From: a virus
Taxonomy: Duplodnaviria > Heunggongvirae > Uroviricota > Caudoviricetes
DNA length: 6,593 nucleotides
Virus record (IMG/VR): IMGVR_UViG_2541047119_000019
Span: 1 to 6,593 of that record
Strand: one strand, 5' to 3'
The notes under the pieces are model-generated. The model saw nothing but the letters and a program-made list of their open reading frames with translations. It did no database searches and was not told where the DNA came from. The number at the start of each line of letters is the position of its first letter. Position 1 is the first letter of the stretch. Position numbers and translations under genes: made by a program. This document shows, one piece after another, positions 1 through 6,560 of this stretch.

Positions 1-299
1 GTTACCTCACAGCTGATACTGAGGGTTTCCGGGTCCTCTGCGAGCGATTCTGGCTGTTCGGCAGCTGCATCGAGAGTCACAGGAAGTAGCTGGGGGCTCT
101 CTGAAGAAGGTAATAGCAGCTTTCCCTCGCGCCATTGTTGTCGCCATTTGAACAACAGATTGGCGTTAATGCCATTTTCAAGAGCAAGTTTTGAGATGGA
201 TATCCCGGGTTCACAGGAGGCAGCAACGAGCTGCTGTTTAAATTCGGGAGGATAATTAGGGCAGCCTTTTCGCCTGCCGGGAGTCACATTTTTCTGCAT
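1..299 (-). CDS. IS-type transposase OrfA/TnpA, helix-turn-helix (HTH_Tnp_1 / PF01527-like), N-terminal ~99 aa; 3' end outside window
   Basis: Manual minus-strand translation from ATG (plus 299-297) gives MQKNVTPGRRKGCPNYPPEFKQQLVAASCEPGISISKLALENGINANLLFKWRQQWREGKLLLPSSESPQLLPVTLDAAAEQPESLAEDPETLSISCEV with no stop to position 1. The PEFK...GxSxxxLAxxxGI...LxxWRxQ pattern is typical of IS3/IS66 OrfA HTH proteins. It is absent from the ORF track because it has no stop inside the window. Confidence 0.7.
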   Translation of the reverse strand, partial: MQKNVTPGRRKGCPNYPPEFKQQLVAASCEPGISISKLALENGINANLLFKWRQQWREGKLLLPSSESPQLLPVTLDAAAEQPESLAEDPETLSISCEV

Positions 300-391
300 A
301 TCTGATACTTTGGTTCCCACTACTTATTTGGTGGGCACCACTTTGTCTAATTCGTCAGATTCTGACCAGACGGTTCAGGCTGTACGCTTAC
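1..391 (-). mobile_element. Terminal part of an insertion sequence (IS66-family-like), partial; body continues beyond window start
   Basis: The minus strand of 385-391 reads GTAAGCG, the motif I recall as the start of IS66-family terminal inverted repeats. It lies 92 bp upstream of the minus-strand transposase start at 299. The other end and any target duplication are outside the window, so the boundary is inferred. Confidence 0.5.
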
Positions 392-411
392 TTTTTAAGG
401 AAGGTAAATAC

Positions 412-972
412 ATGCTGATTGGCTATATACGCGTATCAACAAATGACCAGAACACCGGTTTACAAAGAAATGCGCTGGAATGTGCAGGATGTGAGCAGAT
501 TTTTGAAGACAAAATGAGTGGTAAAACGACACAGCGGCCGGGACTGAAGCGGGCACTGAAGAAACTAAAACCCGGTGACACGCTGATGGTCTGGAAACTG
601 GACAGGCTGGGGCGCAGTATGCGCCACCTTGTTGCGCTGACAGATGAATTACAGCAACAGGGGATAAATTTTCGTAGTCTTACTGACAACATTGATACGT
701 CAACCCCCATGGGGCGCTTCTTTTTTCACATAATGGGTGCGCTGGCAGAAATGGAGCGTGAATTAATTGTCGAACGGACACGGGCTGGTCTTGCAGCTGC
801 CCGTGAAAGGGGACGAACCGGCGGCAGACCCCGCCGTCTCACGCAGGAACAATACGAGCAGGTCGGGCGTTTACTGGCCGGGGGTGTCAGTCGAAGACAG
901 GTGGCACTTATTTTTGATATCGGTCTTTCAACCCTTTATCGTTATTATCCTGCGAGCGTTTCGGAAAAATAA
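412..972 (+). CDS. Serine-recombinase DNA invertase, Gin/Pin/Cin/Hin (Din) family
   Basis: From ATG 412 the product begins MLIGYIRVSTNDQNTGLQRNALECAGCEQIFEDK..., with the catalytic Ser in RVSTNDQ, the WKLDRLGRS and GINFRSLTD...MGRFFFH...ALAEMERELIVERT blocks, and a C-terminal HTH (GVSRRQVALIFDIGLSTLYRY). This is near-colinear with my recollection of Gin/Pin. SD AAGGAAGG at 397-404 sits 7 nt before the ATG. The track start at TTG 310 is rejected. Confidence 0.93.
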   Translation: MLIGYIRVSTNDQNTGLQRNALECAGCEQIFEDKMSGKTTQRPGLKRALKKLKPGDTLMVWKLDRLGRSMRHLVALTDELQQQGINFRSLTDNIDTSTPMGRFFFHIMGALAEMERELIVERTRAGLAAARERGRTGGRPRRLTQEQYEQVGRLLAGGVSRRQVALIFDIGLSTLYRYYPASVSEK

Positions 973-1071
973 GACGCTCTCTTTGTTGGGCCTTTACTGA
1001 ATTAACGCAAAATGGCGTTTATCGGTCTGTGGATATGATAATTCAGTTTATTCAGGAACAGGCTGATTATT

Positions 1072-3111
1072 ATGACGTCCAAATGGGTTCAACTATCATC
1101 AATGCCCGGAAACTTTACTGTTAAAGTTTCCGGTGGTACAGCGGCATTTCTTGAGGCTCCCTTTCCTCCGGCCGAAACAAAAGGAGGAATGACATTTGCT
1201 GACTGTCTCATCAGTTTTAATACACGGGATTGCCTGTGGGTAAGGCCAGTATCCGGTGATCCGAGTGTGGAAATTACCGGAGCGGGTATTGGTGCGGTCA
1301 TTCCGTTAAGTGCTGATGTTGCCGGTACTGCTGAACCGTCAGACTGGGATAATGCTGAAACACATACCCGTCCGTCAGGAAATGAAACTGCTTCCAGCTC
1401 CCCTTCCTGGTATTACGTGGTGGTTCTTGCTGGTCAGTCAAACGGTATGGCTTACGGTGAAGGTCTGCCACTGCCGGAGACATATGACCGCCCCGAACCG
1501 CGTATTATGCAGTTAGCCCGTCGCAGTACAGTCACGCCGGGAGGTAAAGCCTGTCAGTATAACGACATCATTCTGGCCGACCACTGTCTGCATGATGTGC
1601 AGGATATGAGTGGAAAAAATCACCCGAAAGCGGATGTGGCTAAAGGGCAATATGGCACCGTGGGTCAGGGGCTTCACATTGCCAAAAAACTGCTGCCGTT
1701 TATTCCGGCAGATGCGGGGATTCTGCTGGTTCCCTGCTGCCGTGGTGGTTCTGCATTCACGGCGGGTGCTGACGGCACGTACAGTGACAGCACGGGTGCT
1801 TCAGAGGACTCAGCCCGCTGGGGTGTGGATAAGCCGCTGTATAAGGACTTAATCAGCCGGACAAAAGCGGCACTGGCGAAGAACCCGAAAAACCGCCTGC
1901 TTGCTGTGGTGTGGATGCAGGGCGAGTTTGATATTGATGCGAAGCCGACGGAGCATTCTGCGCTGTTTCTGGCGATGGTGGAAAAATTCCGCGCAGACCT
2001 GGCTGAACAGGCGGAACAGTGTACCGGTGGCAGTGCTGCTGGCGTTCCGTGGATTTGTGGCGATACCACGTATTTCTGGAAACAGAAAAATGAACCAGCA
2101 TACCAGGCAATCTATGGCGGCTACAAAAACAAAACAGATAAAAACATTCATTTCGTTCCATTAATGACAGATGAAAATGGCGTGAATGTACCCACCAACA
2201 ATCCGGCAGAAGACCCGGATATTGAATCCATTGGTTATTACGGCTCAACGTGGCGTAACAGTGCCGCTACCTGGACATCTGCGGACCGGGCCAGCCATTT
2301 CAGTGCCTGGGCGCGCCGGGGTATTATTTCTGACCGTCTGGCCACGGCTGTTCTGACTCATGCAGGGCGAACCACAGTAAAAGCCGATGTTCCATCTTCT
2401 GAAACTGAAGCACCAGTGCCGTCACCTTCAGAAACTGAAGCAGTAACCACAACACTGCTGTCTTACCGTGTCAGTGAGTCAGAAGGAAATCTGAAAGCCC
2501 AGGGCTGGGAGCCGGCTGGCGGTAAAGCTGAAATTATCAGTGATGCAGGAGGCACAGGTGGTAAGGCAATGAAACTGACCAAGGAAACAGGTAAATCATC
2601 CTGGTATCTGGATCATGATGCCGGTACTGGTGCTGAACTGCTGAAAAATGGTGGTTTAATCAGTTGTCGTTTTAAAGTACCTGGCGACCTGGTGGCAAAC
2701 CAGTATGTCATGGCGCTTTACTGGCCGGTTTCCTCTCTGCCGCAGGGTGTCACCCTGACAGGGGATGCAGGGAATAATCTGCTGGCATCGTTCTACATCC
2801 AGACAGACGCAAAAGACCTGAATGTGATGTACCACAATGCAAAAGTGGCAACAAATAACCAGAAACTGGGAACCTTTGGTGCATTTGATAATGAATGGCA
2901 TACGCTGGCCTTCCGTTTTGCAGGAAATAACAGCCTTCAGGTTATTCCGGTTATTGATGGTCAGGATGGTGCCGCGTTTACCCTGACGCAGTCACCAGTA
3001 GGAACTTTCCCGGTGGACAAACTCCGCGTAACGGATATCACCAAAAATGCAACTTACCCGGTGCTGATTGACAGCATTGTGGTGGAAGTGAAAAAAGCGG
3101 TAACAGAATAA
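1072..3111 (+). CDS. SASA/SGNH-family carbohydrate esterase (sialate O-acetylesterase-like, resembling prophage NanS-p), with Pro/Ser/Thr/Glu linker and C-terminal putative carbohydrate-binding domain
   Basis: 679-aa ORF. It carries the YYVVVLAGQSNGMAYGEG block (GQSN catalytic-serine motif of sialate O-acetylesterase / DUF303-type SGNH hydrolases), then CRGGS and VVWMQGEFD blocks. A repetitive SSETEAPVPSPSETEA linker separates a ~220-aa C-terminal domain. Start choice (ATG 1072 versus internal ATG 1102) is uncertain. Confidence 0.78.
   Translation: MTSKWVQLSSMPGNFTVKVSGGTAAFLEAPFPPAETKGGMTFADCLISFNTRDCLWVRPVSGDPSVEITGAGIGAVIPLSADVAGTAEPSDWDNAETHTRPSGNETASSSPSWYYVVVLAGQSNGMAYGEGLPLPETYDRPEPRIMQLARRSTVTPGGKACQYNDIILADHCLHDVQDMSGKNHPKADVAKGQYGTVGQGLHIAKKLLPFIPADAGILLVPCCRGGSAFTAGADGTYSDSTGASEDSARWGVDKPLYKDLISRTKAALAKNPKNRLLAVVWMQGEFDIDAKPTEHSALFLAMVEKFRADLAEQAEQCTGGSAAGVPWICGDTTYFWKQKNEPAYQAIYGGYKNKTDKNIHFVPLMTDENGVNVPTNNPAEDPDIESIGYYGSTWRNSAATWTSADRASHFSAWARRGIISDRLATAVLTHAGRTTVKADVPSSETEAPVPSPSETEAVTTTLLSYRVSESEGNLKAQGWEPAGGKAEIISDAGGTGGKAMKLTKETGKSSWYLDHDAGTGAELLKNGGLISCRFKVPGDLVANQYVMALYWPVSSLPQGVTLTGDAGNNLLASFYIQTDAKDLNVMYHNAKVATNNQKLGTFGAFDNEWHTLAFRFAGNNSLQVIPVIDGQDGAAFTLTQSPVGTFPVDKLRVTDITKNATYPVLIDSIVVEVKKAVTE
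2398..2442 (+). repeat. Short in-frame tandem-like direct repeat (TCTGAAACTGAAGCA / TCAGAAACTGAAGCA, 30-bp period) encoding the SETEA linker
   Basis: Two 15-bp copies at 2398-2412 and 2428-2442, 14/15 identical, read directly from the sequence inside the esterase ORF. Confidence 0.85.
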
Positions 3112-3117
3112 AAAAAT

Positions 3118-3144
3118 CCCGCCGGTCATGATATGGCTGGCGGG
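3118..3144. terminator. GC-rich hairpin just after the esterase stop; possible terminator, orientation ambiguous
   Basis: CCCGCCGG (3118-3125), 11-nt loop, CTGGCGGG (3137-3144): 8 bp with one G-U pair. An A6 run precedes it, which would be a U-tract on the minus strand. No U-tract follows on the plus strand. Confidence 0.35.
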
Positions 3145-3257
3145 AGCTACCTAACCCATAAAGGAAAATAAAAATACTCCCGAAGGAGTGGTTATCAGTC
3201 GCTTCGATGTTTTTACCCGATAACGAATTATGTAGTCAATATCAAAGGTAAGGTTAT

Positions 3258-3440
3258 ATGACATTCGTTCATACAATGCTGCTTTATTTCTGCGCTGTGG
3301 TCAGTGCGTTATATCTGGTGAGCGGCGGTTATAAGGTCATCAGAAATTATATTCGCCGTAAAATTGATGATGCGGCAGCTGAAAAACTCAGTAAAACAGC
3401 ACAGGCACCGTCATCCCCAAACGACCCGACCCCGCTCTGA
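3258..3440 (+). CDS. Small hypothetical membrane protein (60 aa, one predicted N-terminal TM helix followed by a basic segment)
   Basis: ATG 3258 is preceded by AAGGTAAGG (3245-3253). The hydrophobic stretch TMLLYFCAVVSALYLVSGGY is followed by KVIRNYIRRK. No family recognised. Confidence 0.55.
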   Translation: MTFVHTMLLYFCAVVSALYLVSGGYKVIRNYIRRKIDDAAAEKLSKTAQAPSSPNDPTPL

Positions 3441-3475
3441 TAACGGGGCAATATACCTGCAAAAGGAGAATATTC

Positions 3476-3721
3476 ATGCCAGAGATTAAAGGCACGGTTA
3501 CTGAAGAGCTTGTCAAACAGGCACTTTATTCTGAAGAAGTGAACCGCGTGCTGAAGGCGCAGGTTCGCAAGGATTTTGAGGCACAAATCGACGCATATGT
3601 TGATGAAGTGCTGGCCCGAATGGTTGGCCGTTCTCCGGCTGAAAACAGCACGGAAAATGATCCTCAACCCGTAGAGCAACCAGAGCCGGTTCAGCCCGGA
3701 ACTGACGGTACTATGATGTAA
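3476..3721 (+). CDS. Small hypothetical acidic protein (81 aa), predicted helical N-terminal half and Pro/Glu-rich tail
   Basis: ATG 3476 is preceded by a strong SD AAGGAG (3463-3468, 7-nt spacing). It lies 35 bp after the previous small ORF, suggesting a two-gene unit. No family recognised. Confidence 0.6.
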   Translation: MPEIKGTVTEELVKQALYSEEVNRVLKAQVRKDFEAQIDAYVDEVLARMVGRSPAENSTENDPQPVEQPEPVQPGTDGTMM

Positions 3722-3730
3722 CAATACCGA

Positions 3731-3750
3731 CCGGCAGGTTTCCCTGCCGG
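3731..3750 (+). terminator. Candidate intrinsic terminator after the small-ORF pair
   Basis: Perfect 8-bp stem CCGGCAGG / CCTGCCGG with 4-nt loop TTTC, followed by the T-rich GTGAGTTTGTTAATG. Confidence 0.5.
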
Positions 3751-4076
3751 GTGAGTTTGTTAATGCACGTTTTGTGTATTTTCCCTCCTGGGAGAACAGG
3801 CAGGACATATCAGCATCCTGAAACAGGAAGCATTTTTGGGTTTGTATGTCTTGCCATTTTGAGATCGAGAACGGCGATAGATGAGCTGTAAGGGAGTCTT
3901 ACAGGCAGGGCAAACAGGCTCTTTCATCCATGATAAAGATCTCCTTTTTATGCATCTCTGCTTTACAGGAGACTGGGGAATATCATAGGATACGCCACGA
4001 GCTCGAAGTAAAGCATTGATGCAAAATTGTCTAAATCGGCCCAGAATAGTTCGCGCTATCTGGGTCGCTCTTTATG

Positions 4077-4112
4077 TATGTAGTATCCCATTGATTTGAA
4101 ACATACTACATA
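4077..4112. promoter_or_regulatory. Perfect 10-bp inverted repeat (TATGTAGTAT-N16-ATACTACATA); candidate operator or structured element
   Basis: Arms at 4077-4086 and 4103-4112 are exact reverse complements, in the AT-rich non-coding region upstream of com-mom. Confidence 0.3.
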
Positions 4113-4147
4113 TACGCGCGATCCTACCTTCACTATATAAAAAGTCA

Positions 4148-4165
4148 ATAAAATGATCATTTTAT
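4148..4165. promoter_or_regulatory. 18-bp perfect palindrome centred on a Dam site (ATAAAATGATCATTTTAT); candidate methylation-sensitive regulator binding site
   Basis: Read directly; a second GATC lies 11 bp away at 4166-4169 and another at 4120-4123. Confidence 0.35.
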
Positions 4166-4272
4166 GATCGTTTTCACCACCTAACTCTTCGTTTTCTTTA
4201 AGTAAATAATCACCTACCTGAATCATTGTTGATGACTTTTCAATCTATTTGTTGTATCAATTAAACAAATCG

Positions 4273-4297
4273 AATCGATCGTTTTTGTCGATCGATT
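4273..4297. promoter_or_regulatory. Inverted repeat AATCGATCG-N7-CGATCGATT with a GATC in each arm, 44 bp upstream of the com start; candidate operator / Dam-sensitive site
   Basis: Arms at 4273-4281 and 4289-4297 are exact reverse complements, with GATC at 4277-4280 and 4290-4293. Confidence 0.35.
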
Positions 4298-4340
4298 GCA
4301 TGAGAAAGGCATCAACAACAAAGCAGGAGGTTATGCGGCC

Positions 4341-4541
4341 ATGTATCGAAACATACGGTGCCGACACTGCAATAAGCTACTGGCACGGGCCAGTTTCAGT
4401 TATCTGGAAGTAAAATGTCCGCGCTGTAAAACCCTCAATCAAATCACATCTCCGAGCGCCACAGAGCACCCCACATACACAAGGAAATCCTGTCGTGGGG
4501 AACAGAAAGCAAGTCACATCCCGAATCATCAGCACGCCTGA
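4341..4541 (+). CDS. com: Com-like zinc-finger translational activator (phage Mu Com homologue)
   Basis: From ATG 4341 (SD AGGAGG 4324-4329) the 66-aa product is [34 protein letters not shown]...EHPT.... The two CxxC pairs and the IRC..CNKLL...CPRCK...EHPT pattern match my recollection of Mu Com. Its 3' end overlaps the next ORF out of frame, as com overlaps mom in Mu. The track start at TTG 4296 is rejected. Confidence 0.82.
4469..4500 (+). promoter_or_regulatory. mRNA stem-loop sequestering the predicted mom SD and GUG start (translation-inhibition-structure-like)
   Basis: CCCCAC (4469-4474) pairs with GTGGGG (4495-4500); the GTG is the predicted mom start. The 20-nt loop contains AAGGA (4481-4485). 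This is analogous to the Mu mom TIS that Com binding relieves. Confidence 0.5.
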
Positions 4542-5232
4542 ACTTATTCGCTATAACGACAATATCGTTGGTTATGGCTCCCGTGAGTTGCGGGTTGAGA
4601 CAATAAGTTGCTGGCTGGCCAGACTGGTCATCGTCAATAAACATTACAGCCACCGTTTCGTAAATAACTCCTACCTTCATCTGGGCATATTTTCAGAACG
4701 GGAACTTGTTGGCGTAATGCAATGGGGTTACGCCCTTAACCCAAACAGTGGTGCACGCGTCGTAACGGGTACGCAGAACCGAGAATATATGGAGCTTAAC
4801 CGGCTATGGCTGCATGACTGTATGCCGAGAAACTCCGAATCAAGGGCAATCAGTTACGCGCTCAAGCTAATCAGGCAGCTTTATCCGCAGGTACAGTGGG
4901 TTCAGTCGTTTGCAGATGAGCGTTGTGGCTGTCTTGGTGTCGTGTATCAGGCAAGCAATTTTGATTATGTAGGCAGCCATGAATCAATATTCTATGAACT
5001 TGATGGCGAGTGGTATCACGAGATTTGCAGGAATGCCATTAAACGAGGCGGACAACGAGGTGAACATCTGAGGGCTAATATTGACAGAGCCAATGTTCAT
5101 AAGTTCCGACAGTTTCGTTACATCCGGTTTCTGAACAAGAGGGCCAAAAAACGCCTCAACACAAAGCTATTCAAAGTCCAGCCTTACCCAAAACCACAAA
5201 CAGTTAAAACTGGTTTGAAAGAGAGTGAATGA
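4495..5232 (+). CDS. mom: Mom-like DNA modification protein (phage Mu Mom homologue; adenine N6-methylcarbamoyl/acetamido modification, anti-restriction)
   Basis: 245-aa ORF immediately downstream of and overlapping the com-like gene (4495-4541) in another frame. GTG 4495 is the first start codon after the frame opens at 4414, with AAGGA 9 nt upstream. Size is close to Mu Mom. The call rests mainly on synteny with the clearly Com-like gene; the Mom sequence was not matched from memory. Confidence 0.75.
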
Positions 5233-5263
5233 GCGCTTAAAAACTCATTCTAAAACTCAAAAG

Positions 5264-5308
5264 AAAAGCGCCGATTTAGTATCAAATAAGTTGCGTATCG
5301 GCGTTTTT
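5264..5308. terminator. A-tract / hairpin / T-tract element after mom; candidate bidirectional terminator or IS-end structure
   Basis: AAAAGCGCCGAT (5264-5275) pairs with ATCGGCGTTTTT (5297-5308), one G-U pair, around a long 21-nt loop. A second 7-bp hairpin GAATGAG/CTCATTC (5227-5250) spans the mom stop. Confidence 0.4.
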
Positions 5309-5411
5309 CAGCAGTATCAAATGAAATGCAAATCGGTATCAAAAAAATCGCCGCGCTATACTACAGGCATTTAAATTCCAGTTAAGACCAGGTGGTCAAC
5401 AGGAGCGTGAA

Positions 5412-6560
5412 ATGAGGCGCTTCGCAGGCGCATGTCGTTTCGTTTTCAATCGTGCTCTGGCGCTTCAGAATGAGAATCATGAGGCCGGTAATAAATACAT
5501 CCCTTACGGGAAAATGGCTTCCTGGCTGGTTGAGTGGAAAAACGCCACTGAAACGCAATGGCTTAAAGATGCCCCGTCACAGCCATTGCAACAGTCACTG
5601 AAAGAGCTTGAGCGGGCTTACAAAAACTTCTTCCGGAAGCGGGCTGCTTTTCCCCGATTCAAAAAGCGGGGACAGAATGATGCATTCCGCTACCCGCAGG
5701 GCGTTAAGCTCGATCAGGAAAACAGCCGTATTTTTCTGCCGAAACTTGGCTGGATGCGCTACCGGAACAGCCGTCAGGTCACGGGTGTTGTGAAAAATGT
5801 CACTGTCAGCCAGTCCTGCGGTAAGTGGTACATCAGTATTCAGACAGAAAGTGAAGTATCAACTCCGGTTCACCCTTCAGCATCAATGGTCGGACTGGAT
5901 GCTGGCGTGGCTAAACTCGCCACGCTGTCAGATGGCACAGTCTTTGGACCTGTAAACAGTTTTCAGAAAAACCAGAAGACGCTGGCGAGACTTCAGCGAC
6001 AGTTAAGCCGCAAGGTCAAATTCAGCAACAACTGGCAGAAGCAGAAACGCAAAATACAGCGACTGCATTCCTGTATCGCAAATATCCGCAGGGACTACCT
6101 TCACAAAGTCACAACGACCGTCAGCAAAAACCACGCAATGATAGTCATTGAGGATTTGAAGGTCAGCAACATGTCAAAGTCAGCAGCGGGTACGGTCAGC
6201 CAGCCGGGGCGCAATGTCCGGGCAAAATCAGGTTTAAACCGTTCGATACTGGATCAGGGCTGGTATGAAATGCGCCGCCAGCTTGAGTACAAGCAGCTCT
6301 GGCGTGGCGGTCAGGTGCTTGCTGTTCCGCCAGCGTACACAAGCCAGCGTTGCGCGTGCTGTGGTCATACAGCGAAAGAAAATCGCCTGTCACAAAGTAA
6401 ATTCAGATGCCAGGCATGTGGATATACAGCGAACGCTGATGTAAATGGCGCTCGTAACATTTTAGCGGCGGGGCACGCCGTTCTTGCCTGTGGGGAGATG
6501 GTGCAGTCAGGCCGCCCGTTGAAGCAGGAACCCACCGAAATGATTCAGGCGACAGCCTGA
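5412..6560 (+). CDS. tnpB: TnpB (OrfB) of an IS200/IS605-family element; RuvC-like RNA-guided endonuclease fold with zinc ribbon
   Basis: 382-aa ORF with SD AGGAG (5401-5405). RuvC-like motifs are present: VGLDAGV (D), IVIEDLKV (E) and [10 protein letters not shown] (D), plus zinc ribbon CACCGH...CQACGY. The in-frame upstream translation (ILQAFKFQLRPGGQQERE, 5358-5411) looks like the conserved TnpB N-terminus but has no ATG/GTG/TTG after the stop at 5322-5324. Confidence 0.9.

Follow-up and report, generated by a model that had tools for sequence, protein, structure and literature searches.

The DNA analyzed here (the window, 6,593 nucleotides of a caudoviricete virus record) carries two overlapping genes on its plus strand: com (4341-4541), which encodes a 66-residue protein from an ATG, and mom (4495-5232), which encodes a 245-residue protein from a GTG. 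In the ORF listing of the window the com frame opens at an upstream TTG (4296), and the 66 residues are counted from the ATG. The genes share 47 nt and are read in different frames (4495-4341 = 154 = 3x51+1), bearing out an earlier reading of the sequence alone, which placed a 245-aa ORF in the position of mom, overlapping com out of frame. The same two coding sequences occur in the RefSeq annotation of a 99.98%-identical prophage (locus L001, 20142-20342 and 20296-21033, corresponding to window positions 4341-4541 and 4495-5232). As is characteristic of the Com family, com adjoins and overlaps the gene that it is predicted to control and lies 5' of it. The proposed identity of the pair was upheld by Pfam and PHROG matches for both proteins and by their identity to the phage Mu counterparts, at 79% for Mom and 47% for Com; a scan of Com, Mom and the neighboring esterase against NCBIfam returned no family for any of the three, a result that is uninformative given the strong Pfam and PHROGs matches. 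The module is present in 226 of 5426 complete E. coli genomes (approximately 4%), counting those that contain at least 80% of window positions 4200-5400, where it is annotated as "protein mom" or "Mom family adenine methylcarbamoylation protein".

Comparison of the 245-aa product with Mom-family profiles gave a full-length match to Pfam PF25680 (E 2.6e-77, profile positions 1-202 of 202) and a match to the PHROG "Mom-like DNA modification protein" (1.4e-83). The 79% identity to Mu Mom extends over 229 aa, and residues 5-233 match the solved Mu Mom chain 8bv8_A (crystal structure 8BV8) with an E value of 1.7e-123. By homology to that structure, the protein is predicted to adopt a GNAT core with a helix-turn-helix (HTH)-like insertion and to act as a DNA adenine N6 modification enzyme. 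A family search collected 1539 members, the nearest cluster (1318 member sequences) standing at 98% identity. All nine key residues of Mu Mom, whose roles are reported to be essential or important for activity (PMC7261163, PMC13219725), are conserved: W48, H58, Y59, R111, S124, D149, R151, Y159 and W181 in the 241-aa numbering of Mu correspond here to W40, H50, Y51, R103, S116, D141, R143, Y151 and W173. The Mom-specific HTH-like insertion (approximately residues 175-209 of Mu) is identical at 28 of 35 positions and aligns without gaps, and in the alignment the mom GTG falls on the GUG with which the 231-aa form of Mu Mom begins, the form studied in the two reports cited above. The suggestion of a divergent enzyme with an unknown target specificity thus finds no support in a protein that is 79% identical to Mu Mom and keeps both the tested essential residues and the HTH-like insertion; as judged from sequence, nothing suggests a changed Mom activity.

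The smaller protein matches Pfam PF10122, Zn_ribbon_Com (E 1.9e-12; 46.9 bits against a cut-off of 22.9), and the PHROG "gpCom control of modification" (7.8e-13). Its cysteines C7, C10, C26 and C29 align with the zinc cysteines C6, C9, C26 and C29 of Mu Com, and by this homology it is a putative zinc-ribbon translational activator.

Elements corresponding to those that govern mom translation in Mu can be recognized in the mRNA. The sequence GAGCGCC-ACA-GAGCACC (4454-4470, plus strand) perfectly matches the motif selected in SELEX experiments for Com binding, GAGNNCC(N)2-3GAGNNCC (PMC6483171), and is a putative Com target; it is the sole match in the window, where 0.004 would be expected, and of 80 loci from other genomes 31 have it upstream of mom as well. 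It abuts, as in Mu, a predicted hairpin (4469-4500, plus strand; -14.3 kcal/mol) of the translation-inhibition type, in which CCCCAC (4469-4474) would pair with GUGGGG (4495-4500), including the GUG start of mom, with the Shine-Dalgarno sequence AAGGA (4481-4485) placed within the loop. The Mu stem at the same place is UCCCAC/GUGGGA, such that the outer U-A pair has been replaced by C-G, a compensatory change. Among 19 diverse com-mom loci folded, the start codon was predicted to be paired in 17, fully in 14 and partly in three. The small Com-binding hairpin contains a C.A mismatch and is weakly predicted. A scan of the whole window against Rfam yielded no family at the gathering threshold, and there seems to be no curated model for the com-mom leader.

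Upstream of com lies a 9-bp inverted repeat, AATCGATCG-N7-CGATCGATT (4273-4297), which contains two GATC (Dam) sites, at 4277 and 4290, and is a candidate methylation-sensitive regulatory site. Between the last GATC and the com ribosome-binding site there are 27 nt, 33 fewer than the 60 nt of Mu. When the promoter regions of Mu and the window were aligned with MAFFT, the result proved unreliable upstream of the ribosome-binding site, and the regions were instead anchored by eye on "GATCGATT", which aligns with the third GATC site of Mu. The Mu arrangement of OxyR sites, C site and weak -35 and -10 elements, in that order, cannot be transferred one to one. It is possible, if somewhat doubtful, that the same enzyme is produced under upstream control unlike the OxyR/C scheme of Mu, for example by another methylation-sensitive repressor or by read-through from the esterase block. 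Consistent with such a departure are the shortened spacer between GATC and com, the perfect 9-bp inverted repeat with two GATC sites where Mu has three, a scan of positions 3700-5420 for sigma-70 promoters that detected none between 4226 and 4340 (with total counts no higher than in shuffled sequence), and a search for a late-activator site that found only scattered chance matches among 10-mers that the sequence upstream of com has in common with the remainder of a near-identical 38.8-kb prophage, none being common to the regions upstream of its other late operons. On the other hand, a GATC cluster is still found upstream of com, with the alignment of "GATCGATT" to the third Mu site; a Mor/C-family activator gene resides beside the lysis genes in the near-identical prophage; and late promoters of the Mu type are activator-dependent and would escape a consensus scan.

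The segment that follows mom (5233-5360, plus strand) constitutes the right end of a prophage (attR), terminating in ...CGCCGCGCTATA. This boundary is defined by sequence common to prophages at five other chromosomal sites, which continues up to 5360 and then diverges. The last 82 bp contain three GTATCAAA repeats, at 5279, 5314 and 5336 (all within 5279-5343), compared with 0.26 expected in the whole window, and three inverted counterparts, TTTGATAC, occur at the left end of a near-identical prophage (L007), with the first motif placed 17 nt from the terminus at both phage ends. Insertions of this lineage were found in flgG, betT, a TerB-family gene, sorM, the interval between an IS600 element and a TOTE conflict-system primase-domain gene (L003/L010) and, in the window, tnpB; a target duplication of 4 bp accompanied five of five insertions, where Mu generates 5 bp. 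The 5'-TG...CA-3' termini of Mu are not found in this form, as the left end reads TGTA... and the right end ...CTATA, that is, TA. An earlier statement that the module lacks Mu-like end sequences is contradicted by the end at 5360, the transposase-site-like repeats at both ends and the target duplications.

Beyond this boundary, and outside the module, is an IS200/IS605-family tnpB (InsQ/TnpB; 5361-6560, plus strand), cut 29 nt after its start. An intact copy (L006, 1493-2701) is colinear with the window from 5360/5361 onward, and the Pfam HTH_OrfB_IS605 alignment of the TnpB protein begins at profile position 20. The gene that had been described as a neighbor of the module is the disrupted target of the phage insertion. 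A functional link of TnpB to com-mom was considered and rejected, as the gene is cut by the insertion and other genes take its place elsewhere. The exact junction of prophage and tnpB is absent from the 5426 complete E. coli genomes, which makes the left end and target duplication of this particular insertion unreadable.

On the opposite side, the window opens with the end of an IS66-family insertion sequence (1-391, minus strand), also outside the module and 20 nt upstream of the gin start codon. Positions 1 to approximately 402 match thousands of E. coli IS66-like copies at 99%, a tnpA accessory gene lying under the match; the typical IS66 terminus ...CGCTTAC ends at 391, the position at which homology to L001 and to prophage Sp18 of E. 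coli O157:H7 Sakai begins. From there to 5360 the window is 98.97% identical to Sp18 (ECs_4992-4998); with the right end of another Mu-like prophage, complete at 38,826 bp, the identity is 99.98%. The genes of the latter include a repressor, ner, Mu-type A and B transposition genes, gam and a Mor-family activator, as well as a gpT head, a contractile tail and an invertible tail-fibre region. The window itself spans the prophage from gin to the right end only, and the A/B, head and tail genes are seen in the near-identical prophages.

The neighbors named in the sequence-only reading are real genes: a serine invertase (412-972), a SASA/DUF6645 esterase (1072-3111) and TnpB (5412-6560). The first, on the plus strand, is a gin-type serine DNA invertase corresponding to Sp18 ECs_4992 (Pfam Resolvase, 2.2e-51; HTH_7, 1.9e-14; PHROG DNA invertase, 1.3e-95). 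It is followed by a block of three plus-strand genes of Stx-lambdoid type (1072-3721; Sp18 ECs_4993-4995), assigned by Pfam matches as the SASA/DUF6645 carbohydrate esterase (1072-3111), DUF1378 (3258-3440) and DUF826 (3476-3721), and then by a frameshifted hypothetical gene on the minus strand (3760-4226), without a Pfam match, which is intact (154 aa) in sister prophages. The Mu order of gin, com and mom is therefore kept with extra genes between gin and com, as originally recognized. At the nucleotide level the esterase block is 78-82% identical to Stx-phage genes that carry the annotation 9-O-acetyl-N-acetylneuraminic acid deacetylase. It is cargo of Stx-lambdoid origin, typical of this lineage and with a fixed place between gin and com. 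A functional link of the esterase to com-mom was also rejected, in view of this 78-82% identity to Stx-phage genes and of the minus-strand gene that precedes com.

Taken alone, a 6.6-kb window without transposase A/B or structural genes and flanked by IS elements could suggest a free-standing, divergent Mom-family module outside a Mu context, carried as cargo between an esterase and an IS200/IS605 element and possibly of new target specificity; that its Mom departs from that of Mu at 21% of positions and is 12 residues longer at the C-terminus might be read in the same way. We regard this as highly improbable, however, since this 5-kb stretch also forms the right end in complete Mu-like prophages, a phage terminus with terminal repeats is present at 5233-5360, TnpB is cut by the insertion, and the functionally tested Mom residues are all conserved. 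The module does not lie outside a recognizable Mu context, as had been supposed: window positions 391-5360 represent the right end of an Sp18-type Mu-like prophage.

These findings are most easily reconciled with a Mu-like transposable prophage of the Sp18 type, from Shiga-toxin-producing E. coli (STEC), whose right end carries a canonical com-mom late operon, a reading to which we assign a probability of roughly 0.93. It draws on gene identity, key residues, the RNA motif, the predicted hairpin, the phage-end position and near-identity to Sp18, each of which is directly apparent; from close homology to Mu we infer the mechanism, including transcriptional control, expression and DNA modification. 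The operon would be transcribed late in lytic growth, a step that in Mu requires the late activator C and Dam methylation of the upstream GATC sites. With the mom GUG start presumably locked in the mRNA hairpin, the four-cysteine zinc-ribbon protein Com, itself made from this mRNA, would bind the GAGNNCC-N3-GAGNNCC site that abuts the hairpin and open it, permitting translation of mom. By analogy with its Mu counterpart, the GNAT-fold Mom would then move glycine from Gly-tRNA(Gly) to the N6 of adenine in double-stranded DNA, and rearrangement of this adduct would give N6-carbamoylmethyl-adenine (6-NcmdA), with the expected outcome that many restriction enzymes are blocked.

Whether this operon would be expressed from the particular prophage in the window is a separate consideration. 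An intact module could be silent if the prophage were crippled by the IS or by lesions elsewhere, and the late activator not supplied. The IS66-family element 20 nt upstream of gin and the frameshift in the neighboring minus-strand gene are in keeping with such decay, as are the location of the remaining prophage outside the window and the absence of its exact tnpB junction from the 5426 complete genomes. Yet com, mom, the RNA elements and the right end show no damage and match their counterparts in prophages taken to be intact at 99-100% identity, Sp18 is itself predicted to be intact (PMC2669165), and the lineage has transposed recently, as its many different insertion sites show. We consider a silent remnant unlikely.

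As a discovery, the module carries little weight. Its two genes have been annotated in Sakai since publication of the genome, as ECs_4997 and ECs_4998 ("DNA modification protein"), and published work names them as a pair of Mom and Com homologues. The present analysis is of use mainly as a correction, as a short window with IS sequence at both edges made a normal phage end resemble an orphan module. Many restriction systems are probably ineffective against the DNA that Sp18-type phages package in STEC; such protection would bear on the spread of a phage type that disrupts flgG, betT and sorM and inserts into Stx phages.

Among known systems the closest is Sp18 of E. coli O157:H7 Sakai, which is the same element: its Com (ECs_4997) is identical, its Mom (ECs_4998) differs at two of 245 residues, and the order gin-esterase-DUF1378-DUF826-(minus-strand ORF)-com-mom-right end is that of the window. 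The Mom and Com homologues of Sp18 have been mentioned previously (PMC3299994). The window prophage differs from Sp18 in its location, in tnpB next to gltX rather than in sorM, and in having both an IS66-family element upstream of gin and a frameshift in the minus-strand ORF. A relative of Sp18 is Phi804-3 of FRIK804 (H6), where the match falls at the right end of Phi804-3. A sister Sp18-type prophage matches at 96.5% identity from gin up to a point 13 nt beyond the GUG; there the exact mom slot is occupied by the gene for a C5 cytosine methyltransferase of 350 aa (com and methyltransferase together at L011 6953-8159), and homology is regained at the phage end; this methyltransferase allele is found in approximately 10 genomes, compared with approximately 226 for the mom allele.

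Likeness to phage Mu itself (gp54/gp55) extends from the position at the right end after gin to the out-of-frame com/mom overlap, the GUG enclosed in a hairpin with the Com motif just upstream, the GATC sites upstream of com, and the proteins, with Mom at 79%, Com at 47% and the essential Mom residues all kept. The differences include 3.3 kb of Stx-lambdoid-type genes between gin and com, two upstream GATC sites rather than three in a promoter region 33 nt shorter, a 2-residue N-terminal insert and the 12-residue C-terminal extension of Mom, target duplications of 4 bp rather than 5 bp, and a right terminus of TA rather than CA, a departure from Mu proper that is typical of the Sp18 lineage. 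Other Mu-like phages carry com-linked DNA methyltransferases in the place of mom, namely B3 (ORF47/48), FluMu (hin1523) and Pnme1 (nma1821) (PMC3299994); in these the com-gated slot at the right end accommodates interchangeable DNA-modification genes, whereas the window holds a true Mom. With odds that we judge to be about even, com, its RNA site and the start-codon hairpin may form a fixed translational "socket" for swapped DNA-modification enzymes in Sp18-type phages, the window representing the mom allele of a polymorphic anti-restriction locus, and the 4-bp duplications and TA terminus may hint at a geometry of transposase cleavage or stagger unlike that of Mu.

Most of the DNA that flanks com and mom in the window belongs to a single element, a Mu-like prophage. 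Positions 391-5360 are 99.98% identical to a Mu-like prophage in NZ_CP066748, whose match to window 4200-5400 is 100% identical and where the stretch forms the right end of a complete 38,826-bp element. The same positions are 98.97% identical to ECs_4992-ECs_4998 of Sp18, a known Mu-like prophage of E. coli O157:H7 Sakai that is predicted to be intact (PMC2669165); the Sp18 Com protein is the same as that of the window, and its Mom differs at two residues. Membership of the Sp18 lineage is thus indicated directly, by 99% nucleotide identity. From its left end, the NZ_CP066748 prophage carries a repressor, a ner-like HTH gene, Mu transposase A, the AAA ATPase B and gam, followed by a Mor-family activator, lysis genes, portal, protease and the gpT major head, then by sheath, tube, tape measure, baseplate, tail fibre and an inverted tail-fibre-assembly gene, and finally by invertase, DUF6645 esterase, DUF1378, DUF826, a minus-strand ORF, com and mom, beyond which is a truncated flgG. 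Elsewhere in this prophage, outside the window, RefSeq places a "tRNA-OTHER" gene (NZ_CP066748 3257212-3257292; positions 6-86 of our locus L001) between the genes for head morphogenesis and virion morphogenesis.

When 5426 complete E. coli genomes were searched by megablast with window 4200-5400, 226 had matches covering 80% or more of the query. Most of these are O157:H7, O26, O111 and other STEC, and there the genes are labelled "Com family" and "protein mom" or "Mom family adenine methylcarbamoylation protein". In strain FRIK804 the element matched is Phi804-3, a related copy (PMC7430833). The com-mom pair has been annotated and published before, as part of a common prophage of STEC. The sequence-only reading, which set the pair outside any recognisable Mu context, is contradicted by these identities; the prophage was missed because IS sequences occupy both edges of the window.

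Its recognition of a Mu-like com-mom pair was nevertheless sound. On the plus strand, an ATG-started ORF of 66 aa (com, 4341-4541) overlaps a GTG-started ORF of 245 aa (mom, 4495-5232) by 47 nt in a different frame, according to the ORF listing. The shorter product matches Pfam Zn_ribbon_Com (E 1.9e-12, exceeding the curated cut-off) and the PHROG "gpCom control of modification"; it is 47% identical to phage Mu Com, and alignment shows all four cysteines retained. The longer product covers the whole of Pfam PF25680 "Mom" (E 2.6e-77), matches the PHROG "Mom-like DNA modification protein" (E 1.4e-83) and is 79% identical to Mu Mom across 229 residues. Mu Mom is a GNAT-fold enzyme of solved structure (8BV8), which transfers glycine from Gly-tRNA(Gly) to the N6 of adenine in double-stranded DNA, where the adduct rearranges to 6-NcmdA; R111, S124 and R151 are essential, and W48, H58, Y59, D149, Y159, W181 and an HTH-like insertion are important (PMC13219725, PMC7261163). 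Residues 5-233 of the window protein align with the solved chain 8bv8_A (E 1.7e-123), a homology that points to the same GNAT fold. All nine of the essential or important residues are retained, as are 28 of the 35 positions of the HTH-like insertion. The GUG start of the 231-aa form of Mu Mom aligns with the GTG start in the window; the window protein is longer than that form by a 2-residue insert close to the N-terminus and by 12 residues at the C-terminus. Each of the family-defining traits of Mom and Com that we tested was found, and by homology the proteins would have the corresponding activities; the proposal of a divergent Mom enzyme is unsupported, given the identity to Mu Mom and the retention of its key residues.

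The mRNA carries the elements predicted for translational control of the Mu type. At 4454-4470 on the plus strand, GAGCGCC-ACA-GAGCACC matches perfectly the bipartite Com-binding motif derived by SELEX (PMC6483171), and is the sole match in the window (0.004 expected); in other genomes, 31 of 80 loci likewise have this motif upstream of mom. Adjoining it is a predicted plus-strand hairpin whose stem is formed by CCCCAC (4469-4474) and GUGGGG (4495-4500), the second of these being the mom start codon and three further bases, with the Shine-Dalgarno sequence in the loop. The Mu hairpin at the equivalent place is UCCCAC/GUGGGA, so that the outer pair, U-A in Mu and C-G here, has changed in a compensatory manner. 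Among 19 folded com-mom loci, ranging from Enterobacterales to Desulfovibrio and Rhodospirillales, 17 have a base-paired mom start codon in the predicted minimum-energy structure (complete in 14, at two of its three bases in 3), a count made without a shuffled control and hence supportive rather than statistical. Because the Com motif, the start-codon hairpin and the Com cysteines are all present, we infer by analogy with Mu that Com would bind beside the inhibitory hairpin and so free the mom start.

Across loci L019-L091, which are mom-homologue loci of many distant bacteria, the pattern GAG-NN-CC...GAG-N'N'-CC recurs ~100-150 nt ahead of the mom matches, with variable dinucleotides that are complementary (GG/CC, GA/TC, AA/TT, AC/GT, CG/CG). 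This covariation is consistent with a small Com-binding hairpin having a C-G loop-closing pair; the corresponding stem in the window contains a C.A mismatch. Control by Com is not universal in the family, since some mom homologues in Symbiopectobacterium, Yersinia and Serratia (L013, L016, L018, L022-L026) have an ATG start and no recognisable com upstream; the upstream DNA of the Symbiopectobacterium loci L016 and L018 is rich in GATC.

The explanation is weakest on transcriptional control. Upstream of com, a perfect 9-bp inverted repeat, AATCGATCG-N7-CGATCGATT (4273-4297), holds two GATC sites (4277 and 4290) that recall the Dam/OxyR-controlled GATC cluster of Mu, the third GATC site of which aligns with GATCGATT in the window. 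The distance from GATC to the com ribosome-binding site is 27 nt in the window versus 60 nt in Mu, 33 nt shorter. A promoter scan detected no sigma-70-like promoter upstream of com, and a comparison with late regions elsewhere in the prophage revealed no sequence in common; the near-identical NZ_CP066748 prophage contains a Mor/C-family activator gene.

Pfam matches bore out the neighbours previously named, a serine invertase (gin, 412-972), a SASA/DUF6645 esterase (1072-3111) and TnpB (5412-6560). The end of an IS66-family element (1-391, terminating ...CGCTTAC at 391) lies 20 nt upstream of the gin start codon, and in this copy of the prophage it separates gin from the invertible tail-fibre segment and the native upstream region. 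Compared with Mu, the Sp18 lineage has an extra 3.3-kb gin-com block. Its esterase, related to phage sialate O-acetylesterases, stands with DUF1378 and DUF826 (1072-3721) between gin and com in every Sp18-type prophage examined. The block genes are typical of the Stx lambdoid late region and 78-82% identical to genes labelled 9-O-acetyl-sialate deacetylase; the block looks like a module moved from lambdoid to Mu-like phages.

The right end of the prophage is window 5360, five copies at different chromosomal sites being alike as far as ...AATCGCCGCGCTATA and then diverging. The window sequence after 5360/5361 runs colinear with an InsQ/TnpB gene (IS200/IS605 family) that is intact in the chromosomal gltX-yfeD interval of other E. 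coli; the prophage joins this gene 29 nt past its start, and the Pfam alignment of the window TnpB begins only at position 20 of the N-terminal HTH profile, so that TnpB is a disrupted target. As a candidate partner of com-mom it was rejected, the prophage having interrupted it. The exact junction was absent from the 5426 complete E. coli genomes.

Three GTATCAAA repeats, the sole three in the window (0.26 expected), lie in the last 82 bp of the phage, and the left end of a near-identical prophage (L007) has three TTTGATAC motifs in opposite orientation, the first motif being 17 nt from the terminus at both ends. Transposase-binding sites of a Mu-like element would be expected to have this arrangement, and the earlier statement that Mu-like end sequences were lacking is accordingly wrong. 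A 13-mer, ATGAGCGCTTAAA, occurs once near each prophage end in the same orientation (window 5229-5241; L007 17857-17869, reverse strand); the right-end copy overlaps the mom stop codon within a small palindrome (5227-5250), and could be a chance occurrence or a functional site.

The methyltransferase allele, the 4-bp duplications and the altered promoter spacing are modest leads. Sp18-type termini read 5'-TGTAACC...GCGCTATA-3' (window 5356-5365; L001 21147-21170; junctions of L007-L010, L092 and L093), ending in TA where Mu has CA on the right. The target duplication is 4 bp in all five insertions compared (ATCG, CAAC, CGCA, TATC and TAAA common to both flanks), whereas that of Mu is 5 bp; a 4-bp duplication is likewise annotated by the depositors of LC727895, a sister Sp18-type prophage whose host element is an Stx1a phage. 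This sister prophage is 96.5% identical to window 391-4508, to 13 nt beyond the mom GUG, and retains com with the Com RNA motif and the predicted start-codon hairpin. Past the divergence point lies a gene for a 350-aa protein whose C-5 cytosine DNA methylase domain is full-length (Pfam DNA_methylase, E 2.1e-42), homology being regained at the phage end (L011 6953-8323 against window 4341-5360). This allele occurs in 10 of the 5426 genomes, versus ~226 for mom, and its linkage of com to a C-5 methyltransferase parallels the com-linked adenine methyltransferases of the Mu-like phages B3, FluMu and Pnme1 (PMC3299994).
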